From: a virus
Taxonomy: Duplodnaviria; Heunggongvirae; Uroviricota; Caudoviricetes
DNA length: 8,949 nt
Virus record (IMG/VR): IMGVR_UViG_2534681697_000024
Strand: one strand, 5' to 3'
Position 1 is the first letter of the stretch, and the number at the start of each line of letters is the position of its first letter. Made by a program: the position numbers and the translations under genes. Below, piece by piece: positions 476 to 8,890 of this stretch. The notes beneath the pieces are model-generated. The model was not told where the DNA came from and ran no database searches. It was given only the letters and a program-made list of their open reading frames with translations.

Positions 476-1873
476 ATGCCGCGCACTGTAACACATAATC
501 CGGATAGCCCCAATAATGACGATGTTTTAGCCGCATCTGAAAAATGGGACGCCTGTAAACCCCCCTATACCAGCGCACACATGAAAATCTGTGTTGCTGC
601 CGCCAAAATCATCCTCGCTGCTTCCGGCGTGGCTCGCCGTTCCAAATACGAAAAAGAGAACTATCTCCGTATCGATTTCAGCAAAGCCGGTAAGGTTACA
701 TTTTACGCCGAGTTTCCAAAAAAGATGGGCCTCAAAGGTAAAAAGCTCGGCGAGTGGCCGGAGCTCGCTATCCAGCTGGCGCGCGAAAAAGCACTAGGTA
801 TGGCTGACGGTGGACTGTGGGCAGAGTCCGTACATGCAGCGCTGGAAATGTACCGGGATGACCTCAAAGCCAAAGTAGCCCGGCAGAAGCTGAGCCCGGA
901 CAGTTTCACAACCTACGGGGTGCGTATCGACCGGATTAAAGCAACGTTCGGCGAGCGTGAGGTGTTCAGCGACGTAACATACAATCGGCTGGTGGAAGTG
1001 CTGGACGAGTGGATCGCCACTCGCTCGAACAATAACGCCCTGGAGTTGTTTGCCGAGCTCCGTCGGTTCTGGAAGTTCTGCGCACCTACTCTTTGCAACG
1101 GCCGCAATGTTGCCGCCAGTCTGCCAGATGATTATGTTTCCTCCCGCGCACAGAAACCTACCCCCACACGGCTTTTTACCGATATTGAATCAATCGCCCG
1201 ACTCTGGCTCAATGTTGCTGCCTGCACCTCTGTACACCAGAAGAATGCTGTTCGCTTCATGATCATCACTGGTGTTCGTCCGATTAATGTCCATAACCTG
1301 CGCTGGGACTACGTTTACGAGGAGGCTGGTGAAATTGTTTATCCGGAAGGGGTTATCGGCATGCGAGGGGCTATGAAAACACAAAAGGCTTTCCGCCTGC
1401 CGATAACGCCTGAGATCCGGCGGATTATCGACGAGCAGAAAGCTTGGCGTGATTCAGTTCCTGAGTGCAACAGGGATTATGTATTTTTGCAGCCACGTGA
1501 TCCAATGCAGCCATTTTCAAAACGATCACTGGATAAGCTGGTGAAAACATACAGCCCGGACGGGGCTGTAAAAGGAATAAAACATGATGGGACTGTTAAA
1601 GGGAAAGACGGTGCATTTAATACGATGTGCCGTAAATTCCTTAAGAGCAATGTTATTGCCTTGATGAAGGAAAGAGGCTATTCCCGCTCAGACCGAAGGG
1701 AAATCAGCCTCCTTTGCCTTCACCACTCCAGCAAGTCAGATGACCCGATGGCAGAACATTACGACTTTTCTGATGAGATTTTACAGGAAGAGATTGCGTT
1801 GAAGCGCGAAGCTTTCGAGGCTCACGAGCGGAGCATACTTGCGCAGGTGGCATTGCTACGGCGGCGAGGTTAA
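476..1873 (+). CDS. int: Tyrosine site-specific integrase, P4-like family (465 aa from ATG 476; ORF track opens at TTG 470)
   Basis: AAGGA (465-469) 6 nt before ATG 476; arm-binding-like N-terminal region (YLRIDFSKAGKVTFYAEF); catalytic-core-like segments MIITGVRPINVHNLRWDYV, AMKTQKAFRLPIT, LCLHHSSKSDDPMAEHY. Unusual 50-aa N-terminal leader, so start is uncertain (alternative ATG 578 has no SD). Confidence 0.8.
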   Translation: MPRTVTHNPDSPNNDDVLAASEKWDACKPPYTSAHMKICVAAAKIILAASGVARRSKYEKENYLRIDFSKAGKVTFYAEFPKKMGLKGKKLGEWPELAIQLAREKALGMADGGLWAESVHAALEMYRDDLKAKVARQKLSPDSFTTYGVRIDRIKATFGEREVFSDVTYNRLVEVLDEWIATRSNNNALELFAELRRFWKFCAPTLCNGRNVAASLPDDYVSSRAQKPTPTRLFTDIESIARLWLNVAACTSVHQKNAVRFMIITGVRPINVHNLRWDYVYEEAGEIVYPEGVIGMRGAMKTQKAFRLPITPEIRRIIDEQKAWRDSVPECNRDYVFLQPRDPMQPFSKRSLDKLVKTYSPDGAVKGIKHDGTVKGKDGAFNTMCRKFLKSNVIALMKERGYSRSDRREISLLCLHHSSKSDDPMAEHYDFSDEILQEEIALKREAFEAHERSILAQVALLRRRG

Positions 1874-2070
1874 TACTGGCTGCGACATTTTTGAATAAAA
1901 GCGTCGACATTTCGGCGCTCATAACGAACCACTTTTGCACTGAAACGAATTGGTGCCAGGATAGCCCGATGACGATGCTTAATATTCCACTCACATAGTG
2001 TTTTCTGTGTAATACCTAATTTTTGGCATACTTCATCCGGGGTGAGTAAATCGTCGGGTTTCTCGCTCAT
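1870..2070 (-). CDS. AlpA/Xis-family small DNA-binding protein (excisionase-like), 66 aa
   Basis: ATG at 2070-2068 with AGAGG SD inside the 3' end of the upstream gene; LLTPDEVCQKLGITQKTLCEW...PIRFSAKVVRYERRNVDAFI fits the AlpA/excisionase HTH pattern; start overlaps the stop of the 533-aa gene (ATGA). Confidence 0.75.
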   Translation of the reverse strand: MSEKPDDLLTPDEVCQKLGITQKTLCEWNIKHRHRAILAPIRFSAKVVRYERRNVDAFIQKCRSQY

Positions 2071-3668
2071 GCTATACCTCTCTTTTTCATGGCATCGAGC
2101 AGGATGTCCTGCACTGTTCGTTTTGAGTTGCGCTGCTCCATCACCATTTCGTCCATAGTGTCGGCAGCAATAATGTGGTGAATAAATACCGGACGATTGT
2201 GTCCGGCCTGTATCTGTCTGGTTGGGCCGATACGTTCAATAATTTGCTGATATTGCTCCAGGTCCCACCAGTGTGAGAAAAATACCAGTATATATCCGCC
2301 GTCCTGCATGTTCAGACCGTGGCCCGCGCTGGCTGGGTGTGCAAAGAGAACAGGAATCTTTCCGGAATTCCAGTCACGTAGTGTCTGTGGATCCTGGTCG
2401 AGGTGACGACCGCGAGGAAATGCTTTAAGCAAGCGTTCAAGATCGTGTTTCCAGTGATAAGCAACCAGCACAGGTGCGCCAGCTGCTTCGGTCAGTATGC
2501 TGTCCAGCGCCTGTAGTTTGGTGTCATGCAGTTCTGACCAACTTCCGGCGTCGTCTGTGTATACTGCGCCACTGGCGATTTGCAGACACTTCAGTGTCTT
2601 TGCCGCGGCGTTCGGTGCTTCGATGCCTTCGTCTATTTGTTCCTGTTTTAGTGAAGGGCGGGGAAGATTCTGGGGCTGGAATAGCCGTCCGGCCCAACGA
2701 CCGGTACGTGACGCCCCGCAGAACTGTAGCGTACCGCGTAAGCGCCCGTCGTGGCTTACGCCTTTCATCAGTGCCTTGTATTTACTGGTGCTGGTAGTAC
2801 TGGCCTGCAGGCGGATAGCCAGCATTTCTTTCACGGCAGATGGTAAATCGGGGTCGGCTATACGACGTTCTAGGGTACTGCGTTGCATGTCTGGTAGCTC
2901 CACACCGTAGGATTCAACGATGTGCTTAATCAACGCGTCCCGTTGTGTGGCTGCCTGCACTTCGCCATCAGTCATTTCCTGTGTACGCTTTGCCAGGCGC
3001 TTTTGCTCCTGGTCTACCGCTTCGATCGCAGCGCGCGCGAGTTGCATGTCCATGCAGACGCCCCGGTCGTTGATCTGCTGATCACGATGCCAGAGCGCCA
3101 GTTCTGTCCCCTGATAATTCCACTTCGGCAGACGGTTATAGACTTCGCGCATTGCCTCGATATCCAGTCCGGCGTAAGCAACAAAGCGCCGCCATTCTTC
3201 CGGGTGGGTTTTGCTGGTGGCCCGGCGCAGTTTGCTGTTTTTCGGGCGTGGCTTACAGAACAGCTGGATCAGCGCTTTACCTTCTTTGTCCTTCGCTTTG
3301 TCTTGCGGGACGCCTAGTACTTCGCAGAGTTCCCCCAGAGACCCCGGGAGACCGTGCGCCAGCGCCTGCACCATTGTGTCGCGCCAACGTTCGACTGGCG
3401 GTGCCAGGCGCGGCATTGCATAACGCAGGACGGTGCGGTCGAAGTGAGAGTTATGAAAATAAAGCAGGGTTTCAGGGGCTGCGATTGCTTCATATAAGCC
3501 GTGTGGAATACCACCACCGGCAGTGATATCCCACACGTTTACGGGCCCGTCGTTGATAGCCCATGCGAACAGCATCACTTCAACGCCTTCGGCATACGCA
3601 TGGGTACCGTTCGTAATAGGGATTTCGCAATAGGTTTCCAGGTCGCCCCAGAGAATGTTTTCAGACAA
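2067..3668 (-). CDS. Chimeric 533-aa protein: N-terminal T7/PolA-type DEDDy 3'-5' exonuclease, central PolA-like segment, C-terminal SNF2-like helicase C domain; function unknown
   Basis: TTG start at 3668 with GGAGGA SD 7 nt upstream. Exo I DLET (aa 9-12), Exo II FHNSHFD (71-77), Exo III YAGLD (165-169); TGRWAGRLFQPQNLP (322-336) has the spacing of the PolA TGRLSSxxPNLQNIP motif; LFAHPASAGHGLNMQ (441-455) and WWDLEQYQQIIERIGPTRQ (467-485) resemble helicase motifs V/VI. No GxxGxGK[ST] Walker A, no PolA motif B or C. Confidence 0.85.
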   Translation of the reverse strand: MSENILWGDLETYCEIPITNGTHAYAEGVEVMLFAWAINDGPVNVWDITAGGGIPHGLYEAIAAPETLLYFHNSHFDRTVLRYAMPRLAPPVERWRDTMVQALAHGLPGSLGELCEVLGVPQDKAKDKEGKALIQLFCKPRPKNSKLRRATSKTHPEEWRRFVAYAGLDIEAMREVYNRLPKWNYQGTELALWHRDQQINDRGVCMDMQLARAAIEAVDQEQKRLAKRTQEMTDGEVQAATQRDALIKHIVESYGVELPDMQRSTLERRIADPDLPSAVKEMLAIRLQASTTSTSKYKALMKGVSHDGRLRGTLQFCGASRTGRWAGRLFQPQNLPRPSLKQEQIDEGIEAPNAAAKTLKCLQIASGAVYTDDAGSWSELHDTKLQALDSILTEAAGAPVLVAYHWKHDLERLLKAFPRGRHLDQDPQTLRDWNSGKIPVLFAHPASAGHGLNMQDGGYILVFFSHWWDLEQYQQIIERIGPTRQIQAGHNRPVFIHHIIAADTMDEMVMEQRNSKRTVQDILLDAMKKRGIA

Positions 3669-3696
3669 GACAGGGTCCTCCGTGGACTAAACGGTG

Positions 3697-3723
3697 ATAA
3701 AAAGCCCCTGGCTGAGCAGGGGC
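3697..3723 (-). terminator. Rho-independent terminator/attenuator between the Bro-N gene and the 533-aa gene (minus strand)
   Basis: Perfect 7-bp GC-rich stem GCCCCTG (3704-3710) / CAGGGGC (3717-3723), 6-nt loop, followed on the minus strand by TTTTTAT (complement of 3697-3703). Confidence 0.5.
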
Positions 3724-3734
3724 GGATTGAATGA

Positions 3735-4511
3735 TTAACGAGGTAAAGTGGGTGGAATATATCTGCCGATGCGGTCTTCTATGGTCGGCAGAGCACACAT
3801 GCTGTCGCTGAAGCGATCATGCAACCGGTAAACCAGTTTCGAATCCATTTTTTCGAGAGCTGGCATTAATTGCGCCTGCCAGATTTCATTAATACGTCGG
3901 AAGTTATGACAGATGGCGCGGAGATTGTTGATGAACATTTCCTTCTCTGCGTCAGTGACTTCTGTCTTCGCTTTCTGAATACGCTTTGTACAGCCGTTCC
4001 GGTAGAAGCGATCCTGCGCAGCGACAGCCTCATCCACGGTTGGATAGCACCCTACGTAAACGCTTTTCTCTCCGTTCCATGCGTAGGCTCTGTACGGGTT
4101 GTATTTGCTCCGGTGATGGTAAACCATCTTCGGCAGACACTCCCTGTGCGGCGCCAGTACCGTGGAGGACTGCGGAATAGCGGTTTCTTTCTCTATAAGA
4201 TCAAGCACCCAACGGCGAAATTCTTTTGCTACCGGCGTTGTTGCGAACATCGCTACCAGGTGGGCACCGCGTAGGGAGAAAATACGCACATCTTTTTCTC
4301 GTAAGCTATTGTTGATCCCGTTGAACCTCATTTTGAGGTTGATTGACATGCAAGGAGTAAACTCATCCGAGTTGCGGTTGTATATCTGGGTGATTTTATC
4401 GCCGCGCGAATATTCCAGTGCAGTAGCCAAAGTCGCGGCGGTGAACCACTGCTTACCGTTGTGTTCGATCGTTTCGAGAACGTGGGATTTGAATACGGGT
4501 TGAGTACTCAT
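3735..4511 (-). CDS. Bro-N (antirepressor-like) N-terminal domain fused to an AP2-like DNA-binding domain, 258 aa from ATG 4511
   Basis: ATG at 4511-4509 with AAGGA SD 9 nt upstream; Bro-N-like WFTAATLATALEYS...IFSLRGAHLVAMFATTPVAKEFRRWVLDLIEK; AP2-like YRAYAWNGEKSVYVGCYPTVDEAVAAQDRFY. The ORF-track extension to 4628 is very basic, lacks an SD and overlaps the IS91 end. Confidence 0.75.
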   Translation of the reverse strand: MSTQPVFKSHVLETIEHNGKQWFTAATLATALEYSRGDKITQIYNRNSDEFTPCMSINLKMRFNGINNSLREKDVRIFSLRGAHLVAMFATTPVAKEFRRWVLDLIEKETAIPQSSTVLAPHRECLPKMVYHHRSKYNPYRAYAWNGEKSVYVGCYPTVDEAVAAQDRFYRNGCTKRIQKAKTEVTDAEKEMFINNLRAICHNFRRINEIWQAQLMPALEKMDSKLVYRLHDRFSDSMCALPTIEDRIGRYIPPTLPR

Positions 4512-4697
4512 AGTTTTATGTCCTTGACGTATAGGAAATTGAAAAACCAGACGATACCGCTGTCCACGCCTTATGCCACGTGAGCTTTTCTGCTTTTCCC
4601 TCCACTCCGGTGTTTTCTCTCTCTGCATGGTCGGTTTTTATACAGTAACAGGCTGTTTTTTATACTTGCACCGATTCCCGGGCACACTTAGCCTGTG

Positions 4698-5906
4698 TCA
4701 GGCCGGCATATACCTCAGCAGACTGATATCCCGCGCGTTTTTCTTCAGCCCCTCCACATTCAGTCCCGCGATGGCCCGGCGGTATACCATCCGGCCGCCA
4801 CACAGCTCGCATTCGAACGGGTCACGACTCAGGAACTGTTTCACCATTTGTGCATAGCACACTTTCGCCACTGGTTCCGGTTTATCCATCCCCAGAGCAC
4901 GGTACACCTGCGGCAGCTTCTCTCCACACACCCGGTTGGCAAGGAACCCGAAGTATCTCACCATCTTAAAAAACTTCTCCGGGATGTGCTGTTTCAGCCT
5001 CGCGACCAGCTCACGCTGTGTCAGCGTTTCCGTCGCCGTTTCTCCCGTTTTGTGGTCCAGGTAACGGAAGCTCAGGCTCGCCCCTCCGTTGTAATGTGCC
5101 AGCCGGGAGGCCGCTATCGGCGGCTTCTTCAGATAACGACCCAGGTAGCGCGCCGTATTCCTCCCGCCGGCCGTTTTTTTCGACATGTACACATGCCAGT
5201 ATTTTCCTCCGGCTTTCAGCACCAGGCTTCTCCACTGTGATTCCGTCGTGATATGTGACAACGACTCCGGCATCGCCAGCCCCTCTGACCACGCTTTCAG
5301 AAGCAGCTGCCGCATATTCCACATCCACCGTGAACGCATCGCGTCTTTCAGGAAGCTCAGCTTTTTCCACTGACCATGCTTATTCAGACCTCCACAGGTT
5401 ACAGACACATGTACATGCGGATGCCAGTTGAGACGACGGCCATACGTGTGGATGGCGCAGAAGATACCGGGTTCCTGCCCCCGTTTCCGGGCGGCATACA
5501 GCAGATTCTCCACCGCCAGACGGCACACGTCATTCAGCAGCCACCGGTTGCTTTCGAACACCGGCCACAGCGTGTCCGGCAGGGTGAAGACCAGGTGTAC
5601 CCAGTCGCAGTCAGGAAGACGATTCAGCTGTGTCGCTATCCACAGGTCTGTGGCCTTTTTTCCGCAGGACGGGCAGGCACGGCTGCCGCATGAGTTAGTG
5701 ACGTATCTGACGTGGGGGCACTCAGGTTTATCGCAGTTGTATTCCTTCACGCCCAGTATCCGCGTGCCGCAGGCCAGCATTTTGGTGACAGCCTCAACCT
5801 CGATATCGCGCAGACCGCCCGCATCCAGGAAGGACGTCCAGCACTGGTTGGCTGTGAACAGGCGTTTCAGCGGTCGGGGCTGAAAATCACCACCACTTCG
5901 GGTCAT
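4698..5906 (-). CDS. tnpA: IS91-family HUH transposase, 402 aa
   Basis: N-terminal Cys cluster (CDKPECPHVRYVTNSCGSRACPSCGKK), HUH-type motif HPHVHVSV, paired tyrosines ARYLGRYLKKPP. Confidence 0.9.
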   Translation of the reverse strand: MTRSGGDFQPRPLKRLFTANQCWTSFLDAGGLRDIEVEAVTKMLACGTRILGVKEYNCDKPECPHVRYVTNSCGSRACPSCGKKATDLWIATQLNRLPDCDWVHLVFTLPDTLWPVFESNRWLLNDVCRLAVENLLYAARKRGQEPGIFCAIHTYGRRLNWHPHVHVSVTCGGLNKHGQWKKLSFLKDAMRSRWMWNMRQLLLKAWSEGLAMPESLSHITTESQWRSLVLKAGGKYWHVYMSKKTAGGRNTARYLGRYLKKPPIAASRLAHYNGGASLSFRYLDHKTGETATETLTQRELVARLKQHIPEKFFKMVRYFGFLANRVCGEKLPQVYRALGMDKPEPVAKVCYAQMVKQFLSRDPFECELCGGRMVYRRAIAGLNVEGLKKNARDISLLRYMPA

Positions 5907-6159
5907 CCGCCTTCATCTCCGCTTCTGTTTCGTATAAATCAAAACGACGGCAGGTATGGCAGAACGTGACGTATTCGTACGGTGAATCCGGGTACATTTT
6001 GTGGAAGGTTTCCCAGAAACAGACCGTGCAGGAGGGATGACCGGTGATAAAGTCTGCAAATACGGACTTATAAGGGTGATTATTGGCTCTGGCGACGGCT
6101 TTCAGAACCTCTTTCACCATTCTGGTGTGGACTTTCTGGTGCTCCAGGTTGTGTGACAT
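5887..6159 (-). CDS. Small Cys/His-rich ORF upstream of and overlapping IS91 tnpA (90 aa); possible IS91 accessory ORF
   Basis: ATG at 6159-6157; overlaps tnpA start by 20 nt; HPSCTVCFWETFH...FCHTCRR metal-binding-like pattern; position matches the small upstream ORF of IS91-type elements; weak SD. Confidence 0.4.
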   Translation of the reverse strand: MSHNLEHQKVHTRMVKEVLKAVARANNHPYKSVFADFITGHPSCTVCFWETFHKMYPDSPYEYVTFCHTCRRFDLYETEAEMKADDPKWW

Positions 6160-6512
6160 GGGAACTCATTCTGGATGGTTACTCTGAAAGCTCATATTCT
6201 GCCACACCCCGATTTGCAGCCGCCAGGCTGCCGTGGTTCTATTTTTGTTCAGAATCCCTGTGTTCAGCAGGGCGGTCAGGTACTTGAACACCGCATACAA
6301 GAACGGCCCGTATCCTTAGCCTTTCGGCTGTTTTTCGGTATACGCGCTACCCGACCATATCTGAAAATGGACATAAAAAATCCGCATGACTGACGGGCGC
6401 GGTTTCCGCTTGTATAGGTGTGTTCAGCACCATGAAGCGGAATATAGCCCCGTTAATGCGGTGTTGTCAAATCATGTAGGCCTTATCTTGCTGTAAGCCG
6501 CGCCATTCGGGC

Positions 6513-6548: not shown

Positions 6549-7109
6549 TCATGCAGCCTTTCGCTCTCCTTCGATGAGTTCCTCTATTTTGTGCACTCCA
6601 GCCTCGTTGTACCGAAATGTTTCAACCTGCTTGTCACTGTGCGCCGATTTGTCGATGAACCACTTCCCGTACTTTTCTGTTTTGAGCATGTAGGTGTTGG
6701 CTATGCGTCCTACCTTGTTGGCTGAAATACCGTAGCGCTGGCCGACTTCCGTAGCAGAGTAGTAGTGCTCTGAGATAGCTGGCAGAGGAACAACATCGCG
6801 ACCAACAATCGGGGTGAACACTCCAGCTACTGCTGCCTGCTTTGATTCTGAGGACAGATTCGGGAACATATTCACCAGTCGATCCGCCACGTTCAAAGCT
6901 ATTTCCATGGCTCGCGCACGGTCTAGGCTACTTTCTGGTTGCGGTACTGGTTGAGGATGGTTGGCAACCTTTTCGCGCTGATTGAAGTAGCCGTCCTCCA
7001 GTTTTTCGAACACGTCCCATGCCTGATCGGTTTCGAGCATCTTCGCGTGACGGGCGGCTCCGCGCTCTGTCCAGAGGATGAGGTGGCGTGCATTTGGGGC
7101 AATTTTCAC
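6549..7109 (-). pseudogene. Antirepressor-like gene remnant (tail of a Bro-N-like domain + KilAC-like C-terminal domain), apparently 5'-truncated
   Basis: ORF begins at GTG 7109 with no SD; frame is open upstream to a stop at 7197-7199 with no start codon; only the last ~40 aa of a Bro-N-like domain (HLILWTERGAARHAKMLETDQAWDVFEKLEDGYF) followed by KilAC-like YSATEVGQRYGISANKVGRIANTYMLKTEKYGKWFIDK. Confidence 0.45.
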
Positions 7110-7224
7110 AAAGTAGTTTAAAGCTACTTTGTGTTTTAGCGCGCGCAGCTCGTCAGCGAGTTCAGATAAAAGAAATCTCCGCGAATGCGAGGATTGTTAT
7201 TCACCTTTGACGGCAAGTTGCAGG

Positions 7225-7653
7225 TTAGCCACGGTTAACCTCCTGCGGCGGTTCTGGTAGCTGCATCCAGTGGGTTACCTCTTTGAGATACAGGTCTTCG
7301 CCATCACCGTCATCCCAAGTGGGATTGCCATCATTAAACCAGTCGCCATATACGCCGACCTGAGTGTTGGGGATGTTTGGTGGGTAGTTGTTTTTAAAGT
7401 CAGCTGCTAACACATAGCATTGTCGCTCTCCCATTTCTGGCATTCGCTCACTACAGCTTATCCAACCATCCGGAATTACCGGAGAGTTGCCCGACATCTC
7501 ATTCAACTTGTAAGTCTGGCTTACAGGTTTGGCTTCCAGTTCAGCAAATTTACGCACCAGATATTCAGCGTTTGTTTCGTTAACCTTTAAATCTCGTGGG
7601 ATGCATTTACCTTTCAGAAATCCATCCATCTCAATTAGTGACATTTGTTTCAT
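7225..7653 (-). CDS. DUF551-family phage protein (about 142 aa from ATG 7653; ORF track opens at GTG 7671)
   Basis: C-terminal VTHWMQLPEPPQ and GWISCSERMPEMGERQCYVLA match the DUF551 signature (memory); GGAG 9 nt upstream of ATG 7653. Confidence 0.7.
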   Translation of the reverse strand: MKQMSLIEMDGFLKGKCIPRDLKVNETNAEYLVRKFAELEAKPVSQTYKLNEMSGNSPVIPDGWISCSERMPEMGERQCYVLAADFKNNYPPNIPNTQVGVYGDWFNDGNPTWDDGDGEDLYLKEVTHWMQLPEPPQEVNRG

Positions 7654-7796
7654 TTCTTCCCACTCCGCCACATAGCATTCAGATATTTGTTGTCATTAAC
7701 AGAACCGAAACTCTTTCTCTTAAGCAATTTCTTGAGGTAGCCTGAGTTTAACGGACACTCCTTCCTGAAATAGAATGGCATCAGAAGGAGCTAATA

Positions 7797-8099
7797 ATGA
7801 GCAGAAAAACCCAACGTTACTCTAAAGAGTTCAAAGCCGAAGCTGTCAGAACGGTTCTTGAAAATCAACTTTCGATCAGTGAAGGCGCTTCCCGATTATC
7901 CCTTCCTGAAGGCACTTTAGGACAATGGGTTACCGCCGCCAGAAAAGGGCTCGGTACTCCTGGTTCCCGCACGGTGGCTGAACTGGAATCTGAAATTCTG
8001 CAACTGCGTAAGGCGTTAAATGAAGCTCGCCTTGAGCGAGATATATTAAAAAAAGCAACAGCGTATTTTGCACAGGAGTCGCTGAAAAATACGCGTTAA
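7797..8099 (+). CDS. IS3-family transposase OrfA (HTH + leucine-zipper region), 100 aa
   Basis: AGGAG SD at 7784-7788; MSRKTQRYSKEFKAEAV...LGQWV HTH pattern and C-terminal LERDILKKATAYFAQES typical of IS3-family OrfA; I recall it as IS600-like. Confidence 0.85.
   Translation: MSRKTQRYSKEFKAEAVRTVLENQLSISEGASRLSLPEGTLGQWVTAARKGLGTPGSRTVAELESEILQLRKALNEARLERDILKKATAYFAQESLKNTR
8048..8055 (+). promoter_or_regulatory. Programmed -1 ribosomal frameshift site (A AAA AAA G) of the IS3-family element
   Basis: A7G run in the orfA frame; the -1 frame downstream reads SNSVFCTGVAEKYALIEQWRQQFPIEA, matching the start of IS3-family OrfB. Confidence 0.5.
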
Positions 8100-8215: not shown

Positions 8216-8890
8216 ATGAATTCCCAGACAACAAAAGATATTCCCTGCTTCCGTTCTTATTTGCCTGATGCCCTGCGTTTAAGATTTGAAGATAAACTGA
8301 CCATCCGGGCCATCGCTCAGCGTCTGGGTCTCAGTCATTTCACAATACATACGCTTTTTCAGCGATTTCTTGCATCCGGTATCGCATGGCCATTGCCCGA
8401 TTCAGTTTCATTCGCTCAACTTGACGCCATCCTTTATGCCAACAGAAAGAAGGAATTAACAGAGCCTCAAATCAGAGAAGGCTCATGGCGAAAAGAACGG
8501 CGAACCAGCTATAGCCGTGAATTTAAGGTCCGTCTGGCTAAGCAGGCGTTACAGCCTGGGGCTGTTGTTGCCCGGATCGCCAGAGAACACGATATCAATG
8601 ATAACCTGCTGTTTAAATGGAAAAGCCAGTACGAGGACGGCTTACTGAGCGATGATGACATACAGGAATGCATGCCTGTCCCGGTGGCACTGACTGATAC
8701 GCCGGAGTCGACCAGACCAGTTACAAATCCCTTCTGGCGTAACAAGCATGATGAGCGCCCTGAGGGGGCTCCCGGAAACGTCCCACGGTGCGAGCTGCAT
8801 CTTAAATCAGGTGTGGTAAAACTGTTTGACCCTCTCACTCCGGAACTGTTACGGGCGCTAATCCGCGAAATGAAAGGGGGTATCCGATGA
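8216..8890 (+). CDS. tnpA: IS66-family accessory protein OrfA (TnpA), 224 aa, with an N-terminal extension
   Basis: RRTSYSREFKVRLAKQALQPGAVVARIAREHDINDNLLFKWKSQY HTH region and C-terminal LHLKSGVVKLFDPLTPELLRALIREM match IS66 OrfA; stop overlaps the next start (ATGA). Confidence 0.8.
   Translation: MNSQTTKDIPCFRSYLPDALRLRFEDKLTIRAIAQRLGLSHFTIHTLFQRFLASGIAWPLPDSVSFAQLDAILYANRKKELTEPQIREGSWRKERRTSYSREFKVRLAKQALQPGAVVARIAREHDINDNLLFKWKSQYEDGLLSDDDIQECMPVPVALTDTPESTRPVTNPFWRNKHDERPEGAPGNVPRCELHLKSGVVKLFDPLTPELLRALIREMKGGIR

Follow-up and report, generated by a model that had tools for sequence, protein, structure and literature searches.

A stretch of 8,949 nucleotides from the virus record IMGVR_UViG_2534681697_000024 (IMG/VR; Caudoviricetes), here referred to as the window, carries on its minus strand an open reading frame (ORF) at positions 3735-4511 whose product seemed to join a Bro-N domain to an AP2-like domain. 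Does this ORF form a functional unit with the nuclease-like ORF that follows it, or does it belong to a system of another kind? The initial annotation had read it as the first gene of a cassette, encoding a sensor of element DNA that controls the chimeric gene downstream. The domain calls were confirmed, and a DNA-recognising regulator is the most plausible generic role of the protein, but neither the cassette nor the control of the downstream gene stood up to comparison with related prophages. The Bro-N/AP2-like gene is common in prophages, is self-contained and is an antirepressor-type gene of a known kind. On balance it is probably a regulator of the antirepressor class that is gated by a c4-type RNA and has been orphaned in the window. 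The apparent 'regulator plus nuclease cassette' becomes a case of prophage decay, comprising a deletion fusion, the insertion of an insertion sequence (IS) and the orphaned antirepressor-type gene. Two elements of this locus are missing from current annotation, namely the AP2-like middle domain and the role of an sRNA-Xcc1 RNA that seems to act like a c4-type cis-linked antisense regulator. They provide handles on the gating of secondary-immunity (anti-immunity) modules and on the role of the widespread sRNA-Xcc1 family.

Domain architecture of the Bro-N/AP2-like protein

The gene and its parts are located as follows.

3735-4511, minus strand: coding sequence of 258 amino acids with three modules (Bro-N, AP2-like domain, helical tail)
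4521-4525, minus strand: Shine-Dalgarno sequence AAGGA, overlapping the 3' part of the former antisense-RNA target site
4176-4496, minus strand: Bro-N domain, residues ~6-112 (Pfam PF02498, PHROG anti-repressor families; predicted local distance difference test score, pLDDT, of the model 85-93)
3996-4136, minus strand: AP2-like (AP2/integrase-type) beta3-alpha domain, residues ~126-172
3738-3965, minus strand: C-terminal helical tail, residues ~183-258 (phrog_17716, phrog_821)

The ORF is a real coding sequence of 258 codons (ATG at 4511-4509, stop codon at 3735-3737); its relatives comprise 254-260 amino acids and all open with an equivalent M-S/T-x-Q. A longer reading frame of 297 amino acids was rejected because the end of an IS element supplies the codons for the 39 added residues. 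The exact 297-residue product was located on one contig only (GCA_000193915.2, AERN01000022.1), and the exact junction of IS and native sequence had no match in the GTDB species representatives. No phage in the INPHARED collection covered at least 80% of the protein; APSE, SPN3UB-like and Klebsiella prophage-derived phages match it only over Bro-N, with or without the AP2-like domain. Searches against NCBIfam and PADLOC gave no matches, which indicates that no known defence system is involved, and a PDB sequence search with the whole protein returned nothing meaningful. The closest E. coli homolog, WP_001343697.1 (NZ_CP119441.1, L001 7136-8038), has 300 amino acids according to RefSeq. Its start codon was very probably mis-called, since the N-terminal extension overlaps an sRNA-Xcc1 RNA (L001 7950-8036), and the protein should comprise 258 amino acids.

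The assignment of the Bro-N domain in the initial annotation proved correct. Pfam Bro-N (PF02498) matches residues 13-104 with 37.6 bits against a gathering score of 25.6 (E=3.5e-9), and nine PHROG families of the 'anti-repressor' category match residues ~4-115 with E-values down to 2e-28. Proteins that end in P22_AR_C (PF10548) have a Bro-N domain 86-90% identical to that of the window protein.

Residues ~126-172 have an AP2-like (AP2/integrase-type) fold, which is homologous to the version associated with phage HNH endonucleases and lies below the Pfam threshold. The conserved motif of this domain is LP.G.Y...SKYNPYRA......K.VYVG.YPT..EAV.AQ. Pfam AP2 (PF00847, gathering score 33.3 bits) does not match the window protein even at E<=10, nor does it match the isolated domain, and among 18 family members it gives sub-threshold matches in three (best E=3.2e-4). 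PHROG recognises residues 129-170 as phrog_99 (HNH endonuclease). In an AlphaFold model based on 80 homologs, strands at 130-132, 140-145 and 150-156 precede a helix at 159-172, with a pLDDT of ~86-93 for this region across the full-length and the domain-only model and of ~86-88 for residues 130-172 in the full-length one, and flexible linkers at 111-121 and 177-182 set the domain apart from Bro-N and the tail. Plant AP2 domains filled the top six places of a Foldseek search with the domain-only model, ahead of CedA and the arm-binding domain of lambda Int. A fold search with the full-length model reached a best E-value of 0.16; the predicted template modelling score (pTM) of this model is 0.42 and its domains are mutually flexible. 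When a profile of 18 phage-type copies (A3) was compared with PDB sequences, the four best matches were WRI1, AtERF1 (two entries) and ERF096 at E-values from 1.2e-3 to 0.06, all aligning through the beta3-helix motif 'G.k.vyvG.FpT.eeA..A'. The C-terminal 151 residues were also compared exhaustively by phmmer with 1.84 billion representative proteins. Matches included the tandem-repeat proteins P0128, P0132, P0134 and P0135 (E 1e-10 to 9e-9), which themselves pass the Pfam AP2 gathering score, and an HNH_3 endonuclease (P0164) carrying an AP2-like domain at its C-terminus. In intact relatives, HNH_3 and NUMOD4-HNH_3 endonuclease genes occur a few genes away, and their products score 31-37 bits with the A3 profile; Pfam AP2 also overlooks the AP2-like domains of those HNH_3 endonucleases that were tested. 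The conserved residues Y131, K136, Y137, N138, Y140 and R141 are located on or near the beta-sheet. The nearest relatives of the module outside phages are P0126, P0128, P0132, P0135, P0140 and P0143, long proteins that contain four to seven tandem AP2 repeats with the consensus TGY.GV....SKPYQA.V.R.GK.V.LG.FATAEEAAL.YAR. One tandem-AP2 protein ends in a C-terminal DnaJ domain, and these proteins look to be of eukaryotic origin.

The fusion of Bro-N to an AP2-like domain in one protein was likewise confirmed, although a third module, the helical tail, had been overlooked. Two to three long helices are predicted in the tail (187-222, 224-239, 241-248), which matches phrog_17716 and the C-terminus of phrog_821; a PDB sequence search with the tail found no solved structure alike. 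The tail may bind a partner protein or mediate oligomerisation. Alignments indicate that the three modules recombine independently, with breaks at the linkers, and a census of the 120 best clusters at 90% identity gave the following architectures.

Bro-N, AP2-like domain and window-type tail: 18/120 clusters
Bro-N, AP2-like domain and other tails: 40/120 clusters
Other N-terminal domain (AntA where Pfam reports one), AP2-like domain and window-type tail: 48/120 clusters
Window-type Bro-N and another C-terminus, including P22_AR_C: 14/120 clusters

The AP2-like module was also found behind KilA-N, Rha plus KilA-N, and HNH_3, and the window-type tail behind Bro-N alone, Rha, and Ash plus Rha. 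An AntA paralog in E. coli O121 has the AP2-like domain, the tail and the terminator in common with the Bro-N gene (91% nucleotide identity over window 3698-4173), and the recombination boundary between the two genes lies exactly at the disordered linker, at residue ~113. The Bro-N/AP2-like protein is part of the 'Bro network' of domain-swapping phage regulators. Its combination of Bro-N, AP2-like domain and window-type tail is absent from Pfam, NCBIfam and RefSeq annotation, and the labels given to the gene in RefSeq are only 'BRO-N domain-containing protein' or 'transcriptional regulator'. The AP2-like domain, undetected by these three resources, is a regular module of the Bro/AntA/KilA-N/Rha network in enterobacterial prophages.

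The antisense RNA upstream and the ISSbo1 insertion

Upstream of the gene, the following features were located.

6441-6470, minus strand: sigma-70-type promoter, TTGACA-18 nt-TATATT, 11/12 consensus positions
6375-6415, minus strand: leader with target heptamer ATACAAG (heptamer 6415-6409, hairpin 6402-6382, T-run 6380-6375)
6266-6356, minus strand: c4-like antisense RNA, Rfam sRNA-Xcc1 (RF02221), 65.6 bits against a gathering score of 53, E=1.8e-10
6240-6265, minus strand: 5' part of the original 41-nucleotide spacer, which joins to 4526-4512
4527-6239, minus strand: ISSbo1 (IS91 family, 1713 bp), between the antisense RNA and the Bro-N gene, at CAAG
4698-5906: ISSbo1 transposase, 402 amino acids (Pfam Y2_Tnp, Zn_Tnp_IS91)
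5887-6159: second ORF of ISSbo1, 90 amino acids

The constant neighbour of the gene among its relatives is the antisense RNA upstream and not the gene downstream. The comparison covered 23 loci, nine of them genomic (including relatives from Salmonella, Klebsiella and Serratia) and 14 from IMG/VR. A co-oriented RNA of the sRNA-Xcc1 (RF02221) or C4 (RF01695) family lies upstream in 22 of them (9/9 genomic, 13/14 IMG/VR) and ends 39-54 nucleotides before the start codon. sRNA-Xcc1 is not a member of the C4 clan, yet it alternates with the RF01695 C4 RNA at the same position in sister loci, and IsrK-type RNAs are often located just upstream of either. In RNAs of the sRNA-Xcc1 type the loop of the second hairpin (RNA positions ~52-62) shows 6-9 nucleotides of Watson-Crick complementarity to its own mRNA, where the target at -16 to -20 abuts or overlaps the Shine-Dalgarno sequence. 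The pairing segment of the C4 type is found at RNA positions 42-52 and usually comprises 9-11 nucleotides. At least 12 different pairs of loop and target sequences occur among the loci analysed for pairing. Raw RNAduplex energies, calculated for the entire RNA and the region that follows it, proved noisy (z-scores from -1.1 to -5.4), and a loop-restricted test of cognate versus non-cognate combinations was used in their place. Cognate pairs extended over 7.8 nucleotides on average versus 4.9 for non-cognate pairs, a value that was reached in 0 of 10,000 permutations (p ~1e-4). In 12/12 sRNA-Xcc1-type loci the target word of that locus occurs a second time, 59-92 nucleotides ahead of the RNA and immediately followed by a hairpin and a T-run (11 exact to the searched core, one offset by one base). 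Loop, downstream target and upstream decoy covary across at least 12 loci. A c4-like RNA whose pairing is specific to the element nearly always precedes Bro-N/AP2-like genes, and these sequence comparisons suggest that the sRNA-Xcc1 family acts as a cis-linked antisense regulator of the c4/CI type and not only as a trans-acting virulence sRNA.

The sRNA-Xcc1 RNA has been treated as a trans-acting virulence sRNA of Xanthomonas (PMC2996969, PMC12189769), and its position upstream of symE or ORF6N genes was merely noted (bioRxiv 10.1101/2025.06.18.660453, PMC7313666). C4 and isrK RNAs were noted together with Bro-network genes in 'Bro zones' (PMC10111431), and a c4 RNA adjoins the BRO gene of APSE (PMC7313666).

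The predicted pairing element of the window RNA is the loop CUUGUAU at 6301-6295, and the RNA fold of the window leader pairs the leader copy of ATACAAG with this loop. The promoter is conserved as two copies in E. coli O121, where the same upstream element of ~200 nucleotides precedes both the BRO-N gene and the region of the AntA paralog. The leader is an analogue of IsrK or of P4 seqA. The isrK model does not recognise the leader of the window; IsrK and C4 models match the sister cassettes in E. coli O121 and Salmonella. Complementarity over 10 nucleotides between the T-run region of the leader (UUUUAUGUCC) and the ribosome-binding region was considered as well and was dropped in favour of the covarying pairing of loop and target. 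Two antisense-RNA/antirepressor cassettes flank the DNA polymerase gene in intact relatives (L003 10329-11332, 14347-15569), and the second of them harbors three tandem RNAs (sRNA-Xcc1, isrK and C4).

RNA and gene are separated in the window by ISSbo1, which is 99.5-99.7% identical to plasmid copies annotated as 'IS91-like element ISSbo1' that end at window positions 4524 and 6239. Elements of the IS91 family insert beside CAAG or GAAC. The first non-IS base was placed at CAAG because IS91-family elements always abut that target; the element is flanked by ...GAACAAAAATA on one side and by CAAG on the other, and it was inserted 15 nucleotides upstream of the ATG of the Bro-N gene. Deletion of 4527-6239 in silico joins GAACACAGGGATTCTGAACAAAAATA to CAAGGACATAAAACT-ATG. 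The reconstructed spacer of 41 nucleotides lies inside the range of 39-45 nucleotides that is found in sister loci of the sRNA-Xcc1 type, and within it, at -18 relative to the ATG, stands ATACAAG, which complements the loop CUUGUAU of the window RNA exactly. Therefore, ISSbo1 landed inside the RNA target and ribosome-binding region. In the window this pairing exists only after removal of ISSbo1 in silico and is disrupted at present. ISSbo1 has uncoupled the Bro-N gene from its promoter and RNA and destroyed the target site, and the system is broken in the window.

Proposed function and its alternatives

In its native state the cassette would start with a strong constitutive promoter, followed by a leader in which a decoy copy of a 7-nucleotide word lies beside a terminator and by a c4-like RNA of ~90 nucleotides. 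The loop of this RNA would pair with the same word over the Shine-Dalgarno sequence 41 nucleotides further on, and the ORF would be followed by its own terminator. In a lysogen, the c4-like RNA would keep the Bro-N protein untranslated, by analogy with P1/P7 c4-ant, P4 CI and Gifsy-1 IsrK-AnrP, and might also favour termination of transcription at the leader terminator. Synthesis of the protein would begin once the RNA is missing or titrated, e.g. on infection, and the protein would then act on the lysis-lysogeny circuit of the phage, either by countering the prophage repressor or by otherwise switching early transcription. Bro-N and the AP2-like domain may bind DNA, and the helical tail may oligomerise or bind a partner, most likely the prophage repressor. 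Antirepressor activity, DNA binding and RNA-mediated repression are thus predicted properties of the system.

A locus of the antirepressor class is indicated by the immI-type position of the relatives and by the dedicated RNA upstream in 22/23 loci. In P22-like prophages of Klebsiella and Serratia the gene is located between the gp16 injection protein or a sieA-like ORF and the tailspike, and a gene for a Mnt/Arc-family repressor adjoins it in most of these loci. On the P22 map, the gp16-tailspike interval is the immI locus and the home of P22 ant. In E. coli and Salmonella the gene lies between DUF2815/Enc34 and the DNA polymerase, and one or two such cassettes flank the polymerase gene in the PolA-type prophages of these species.

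P1/P7 c4-ant and the CI-seqA/seqC immunity of P4 follow the same RNA design, and details of P1 c4-ant were reportedly described by Citron and Schuster in 1990. As in the immI locus of P1/P7 (c4, icd, ant), a promoter is followed by a structured RNA of ~80-90 nucleotides and an antirepressor-type gene on the same strand, the loop pairs with sites in its own transcript including the ribosome-binding region, and the pairing sequences are element-specific and set specificity. The Rfam C4 RNA itself occupies this position in sister loci that share the AP2-like domain and the tail. However, the window RNA is sRNA-Xcc1 (RF02221) and not C4, no icd-like leader ORF precedes the window gene, and its product combines Bro-N, an AP2-like domain and a novel tail whereas the P1 protein combines AntA and ANT. 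The IsrK-orf45/STnc1160-AnrP locus of Gifsy-1 is an experimental precedent for the layout of the cassette (PMC4825925). It shares complementary sequences between a short leader RNA that is terminated and a processed RNA further downstream, as well as read-through into an antirepressor-like gene whose translation is RNA-controlled, but the short RNA of Gifsy-1 activates translation via coupling to orf45. P22 Ant (immI; Mnt, Arc, sar RNA) is similar in that the Klebsiella and Serratia relatives lie in the immI position, mostly beside a Mnt/Arc-family repressor, and in that a closely similar Bro-N is joined to PF10548 in other proteins; it differs in that the window protein lacks homology to P22_AR_N and P22_AR_C and in that the antisense RNA belongs to another family. 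With the Bro-N network (baculovirus BRO, phage Bro/KilA/Rha/Ant, CapR of PLE) the protein shares an N-terminal Bro-N and freely swapped C-terminal modules, although the usual partners there are Bro-C, KilA-C/ANT, T5orf172 and P22_AR_C and not an AP2-like domain with a window-type tail. Bro-network proteins have been predicted or shown to interact with DNA as regulators (Iyer et al. 2002 via PMC10111431, PMC8096241), and one protein joining AP2 to Bro segments is mentioned in PMC10111431.

Several points weigh against assigning the gene to the RNA-gated antirepressors. Pfam finds Bro-N in the window protein but no AntA, ANT/KilA-C, P22_AR_N or P22_AR_C, and a protein with two predicted DNA-binding domains could equally well, or better, be a transcription factor. 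RF02221, the family of the window RNA, lies outside the C4 clan, and the case for repression by this RNA is one of complementarity, so that repression is a prediction. Moreover, the analogous short RNA of Gifsy-1 activates translation and does not repress it (PMC4825925).

A wider reading may be offered tentatively. The succession of promoter, decoy, sRNA-Xcc1 and Bro gene might be a general, horizontally mobile and 'programmable' switch whose Bro-N/AP2-like effectors are sequence-specific DNA binders. The sRNA-Xcc1 family would then consist of c4-like antisense repressors linked in cis, with a loop of 7-9 nucleotides that each element adapts to the ribosome-binding region of the gene directly downstream. 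The AP2-like module, a recruit from HNH homing endonucleases on this view, would give the antirepressor class a DNA address instead of, or besides, a repressor-binding surface.

A protein with two predicted DNA-binding modules and a helical tail might also be a sequence-specific transcription factor, activating or repressing, rather than an antirepressor that binds a repressor; Bro-N and the AP2-like domain would read DNA and the tail would dimerise. The AP2-like module is common to site-specific HNH endonucleases, and there are precedents in AnrP, which raises transcription of the antQ operon in Gifsy-1 (PMC4825925), and in CapR, which binds and represses a helper promoter in PLE (PMC8096241). 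Nevertheless, no candidate binding site was identified in the present analysis, the gene sits at the ant position of P22-type immI, and the swaps with AntA and P22_AR_C tie the family to classical antirepressors. A role as transcription factor in place of an antirepressor is therefore rather doubtful, although the two roles are not mutually exclusive.

HNH endonucleases are the classical bacterial and phage context of AP2 domains, and free-standing or homing HNH_3-AP2 endonucleases with a homologous AP2-like beta3-alpha domain occur in the same prophages. The window protein differs from them in that it has no nuclease domain and in that its AP2-like domain is internal, between Bro-N and the tail. 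That the gene is a degenerate or domesticated relative of a homing endonuclease, i.e. a selfish mobile cassette that retained the AP2-like DNA-targeting module of an HNH-AP2 endonuclease but has neither a nuclease nor a role in phage regulation, is improbable. It would agree with the match of the AP2-like module to the C-terminal domain of P0164 and of the nearby HNH_3 and NUMOD4-HNH_3 endonucleases (at the bit scores given above), with the position of the cassette between conserved replication genes, a typical spot for free-standing endonuclease genes, and with the idea of Bro-gene mobilisation raised in PMC10111431. However, Pfam, PHROG (only phrog_99, for the AP2-like part), NCBIfam and PADLOC detect no nuclease domain, the family is well conserved over its full length, and dedicated control by an antisense RNA together with a decoy is a hallmark of immunity and antirepressor loci and not of homing endonuclease genes.

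The downstream ORF and the decayed prophage

Two features downstream of the Bro-N gene bear on the link to a nuclease.

2067-3668, minus strand: in-frame deletion fusion of polymerase and SNF2 genes, 533 amino acids (sequence comparison with intact E. coli prophages, PHROG)
3697-3723, minus strand: intrinsic terminator of the cassette, strong (GCCCCTG-loop-CAGGGGC, then T-run)

Over residues 1-359 the downstream ORF shares 97% identity with the start (likewise residues 1-359) of a phage DNA polymerase of ~975 amino acids; this part is the 3'-5' exonuclease N-terminus of a family-A DNA polymerase and includes the DxE Exo I motif. Residues 347-533 correspond, again with 97% identity, to residues 278-464 of an SNF2 helicase (C-terminal helicase domain), and PHROG recognises the same two halves. 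The window aligns in two pieces to the prophage of E. coli O121, positions 1-2631 to the segment from yfhL to the C-terminus of SNF2 and positions 2606-4524 to the segment from the N-terminus of the polymerase to BRO-N. This split alignment shows that the ORF of 533 amino acids is a fusion. Its join lies at a microhomology, GCATCGAAGC, and ~6.4 kb were deleted, which is the distance between the polymerase and SNF2 genes in intact E. coli prophages. The polymerase gene starts with a TTG preceded by the ribosome-binding site GGAGGA, upstream of the start given in RefSeq for the E. coli O121 homolog; the RefSeq start removes the DxE Exo I motif.

Thus the 'nuclease-like chimera' that had been taken for a partner is the product of a ~6.4-kb deletion on one contig, and a functional link of the Bro-N gene to it is not supported: a strong terminator (3723-3704) sits between them, and the downstream neighbour differs among the relatives, being the DNA polymerase, Mnt/tailspike, or a small ORF plus terminase. 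The Bro-N gene only looks like the first gene of a cassette through the ISSbo1 copy 15 nucleotides upstream of its ATG, and the region 4512-4600, which had been suggested as a binding region, is almost wholly IS sequence. The idea that the protein senses element DNA and controls the gene downstream finds no support in the comparative data, which show a common standalone prophage gene of the antirepressor type with no link to downstream genes. The adjacency and shared orientation of the two ORFs, which are 66 nucleotides apart, and the plausible DNA-binding domains of the protein speak for a sensor or regulator that works as one cassette with the chimera and controls it. This model is nevertheless extremely improbable, given that the chimera fuses two phage genes that lie apart in intact relatives, that the terminator intervenes, that the downstream neighbours are not constant between phages and that the exact Bro-N protein was found on one contig only. 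The apparent regulator-nuclease cassette arose by chance, through a deletion and the insertion of an IS.

The sequence of the window corresponds to an E. coli prophage adjoining yfhL, and the window is a decayed prophage integrated beside that gene. In E. coli O121 strain 201805972 the order begins with yfhL, integrase and SNF2 helicase, followed by Rha, two Arc-family genes, VRR-NUC, DUF4406 and ANR. Then come an Ant gene (AntA with the same AP2-like domain and tail), a hypothetical gene and the DNA polymerase, and finally the BRO-N homolog, DUF2815, HNH, DUF2800 and, further on, a LexA-type repressor. The window lacks the LexA-family CI repressor that is cognate to the intact prophage (WP_001046700.1 in the O121 type), along with most other prophage genes.

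An ORF of 66 amino acids (1870-2070, minus strand) resembles HTH_17/excisionase sequences (E=1.3e-5); it adjoins the integrase gene and overlaps the fusion ORF at the stop codon of the latter. The ORF of 66 amino acids is probably the Xis/AlpA-type gene of the prophage and is without annotation in the RefSeq record of E. coli O121. Among the ORFs at 6549-7109 and 7225-7671 (minus strand) there is a second one of an antirepressor family, which matches phrog_1726 at positions 78-264 of 264 and lacks ~75 N-terminal residues of the family; a DUF551 gene lies upstream. The stretch 6549-7671 is unlike the E. coli O121 prophage at the equivalent position, and the prophage remnant is therefore a mosaic. 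Two further ORFs on the plus strand (7797-8099 and 8216-8890) are transposase-related, of the HTH_Tnp_1 type, and resemble orfA of the IS3 and IS66 families. Such an IS-rich region fits a genome in IS expansion, such as a Shigella-like E. coli.

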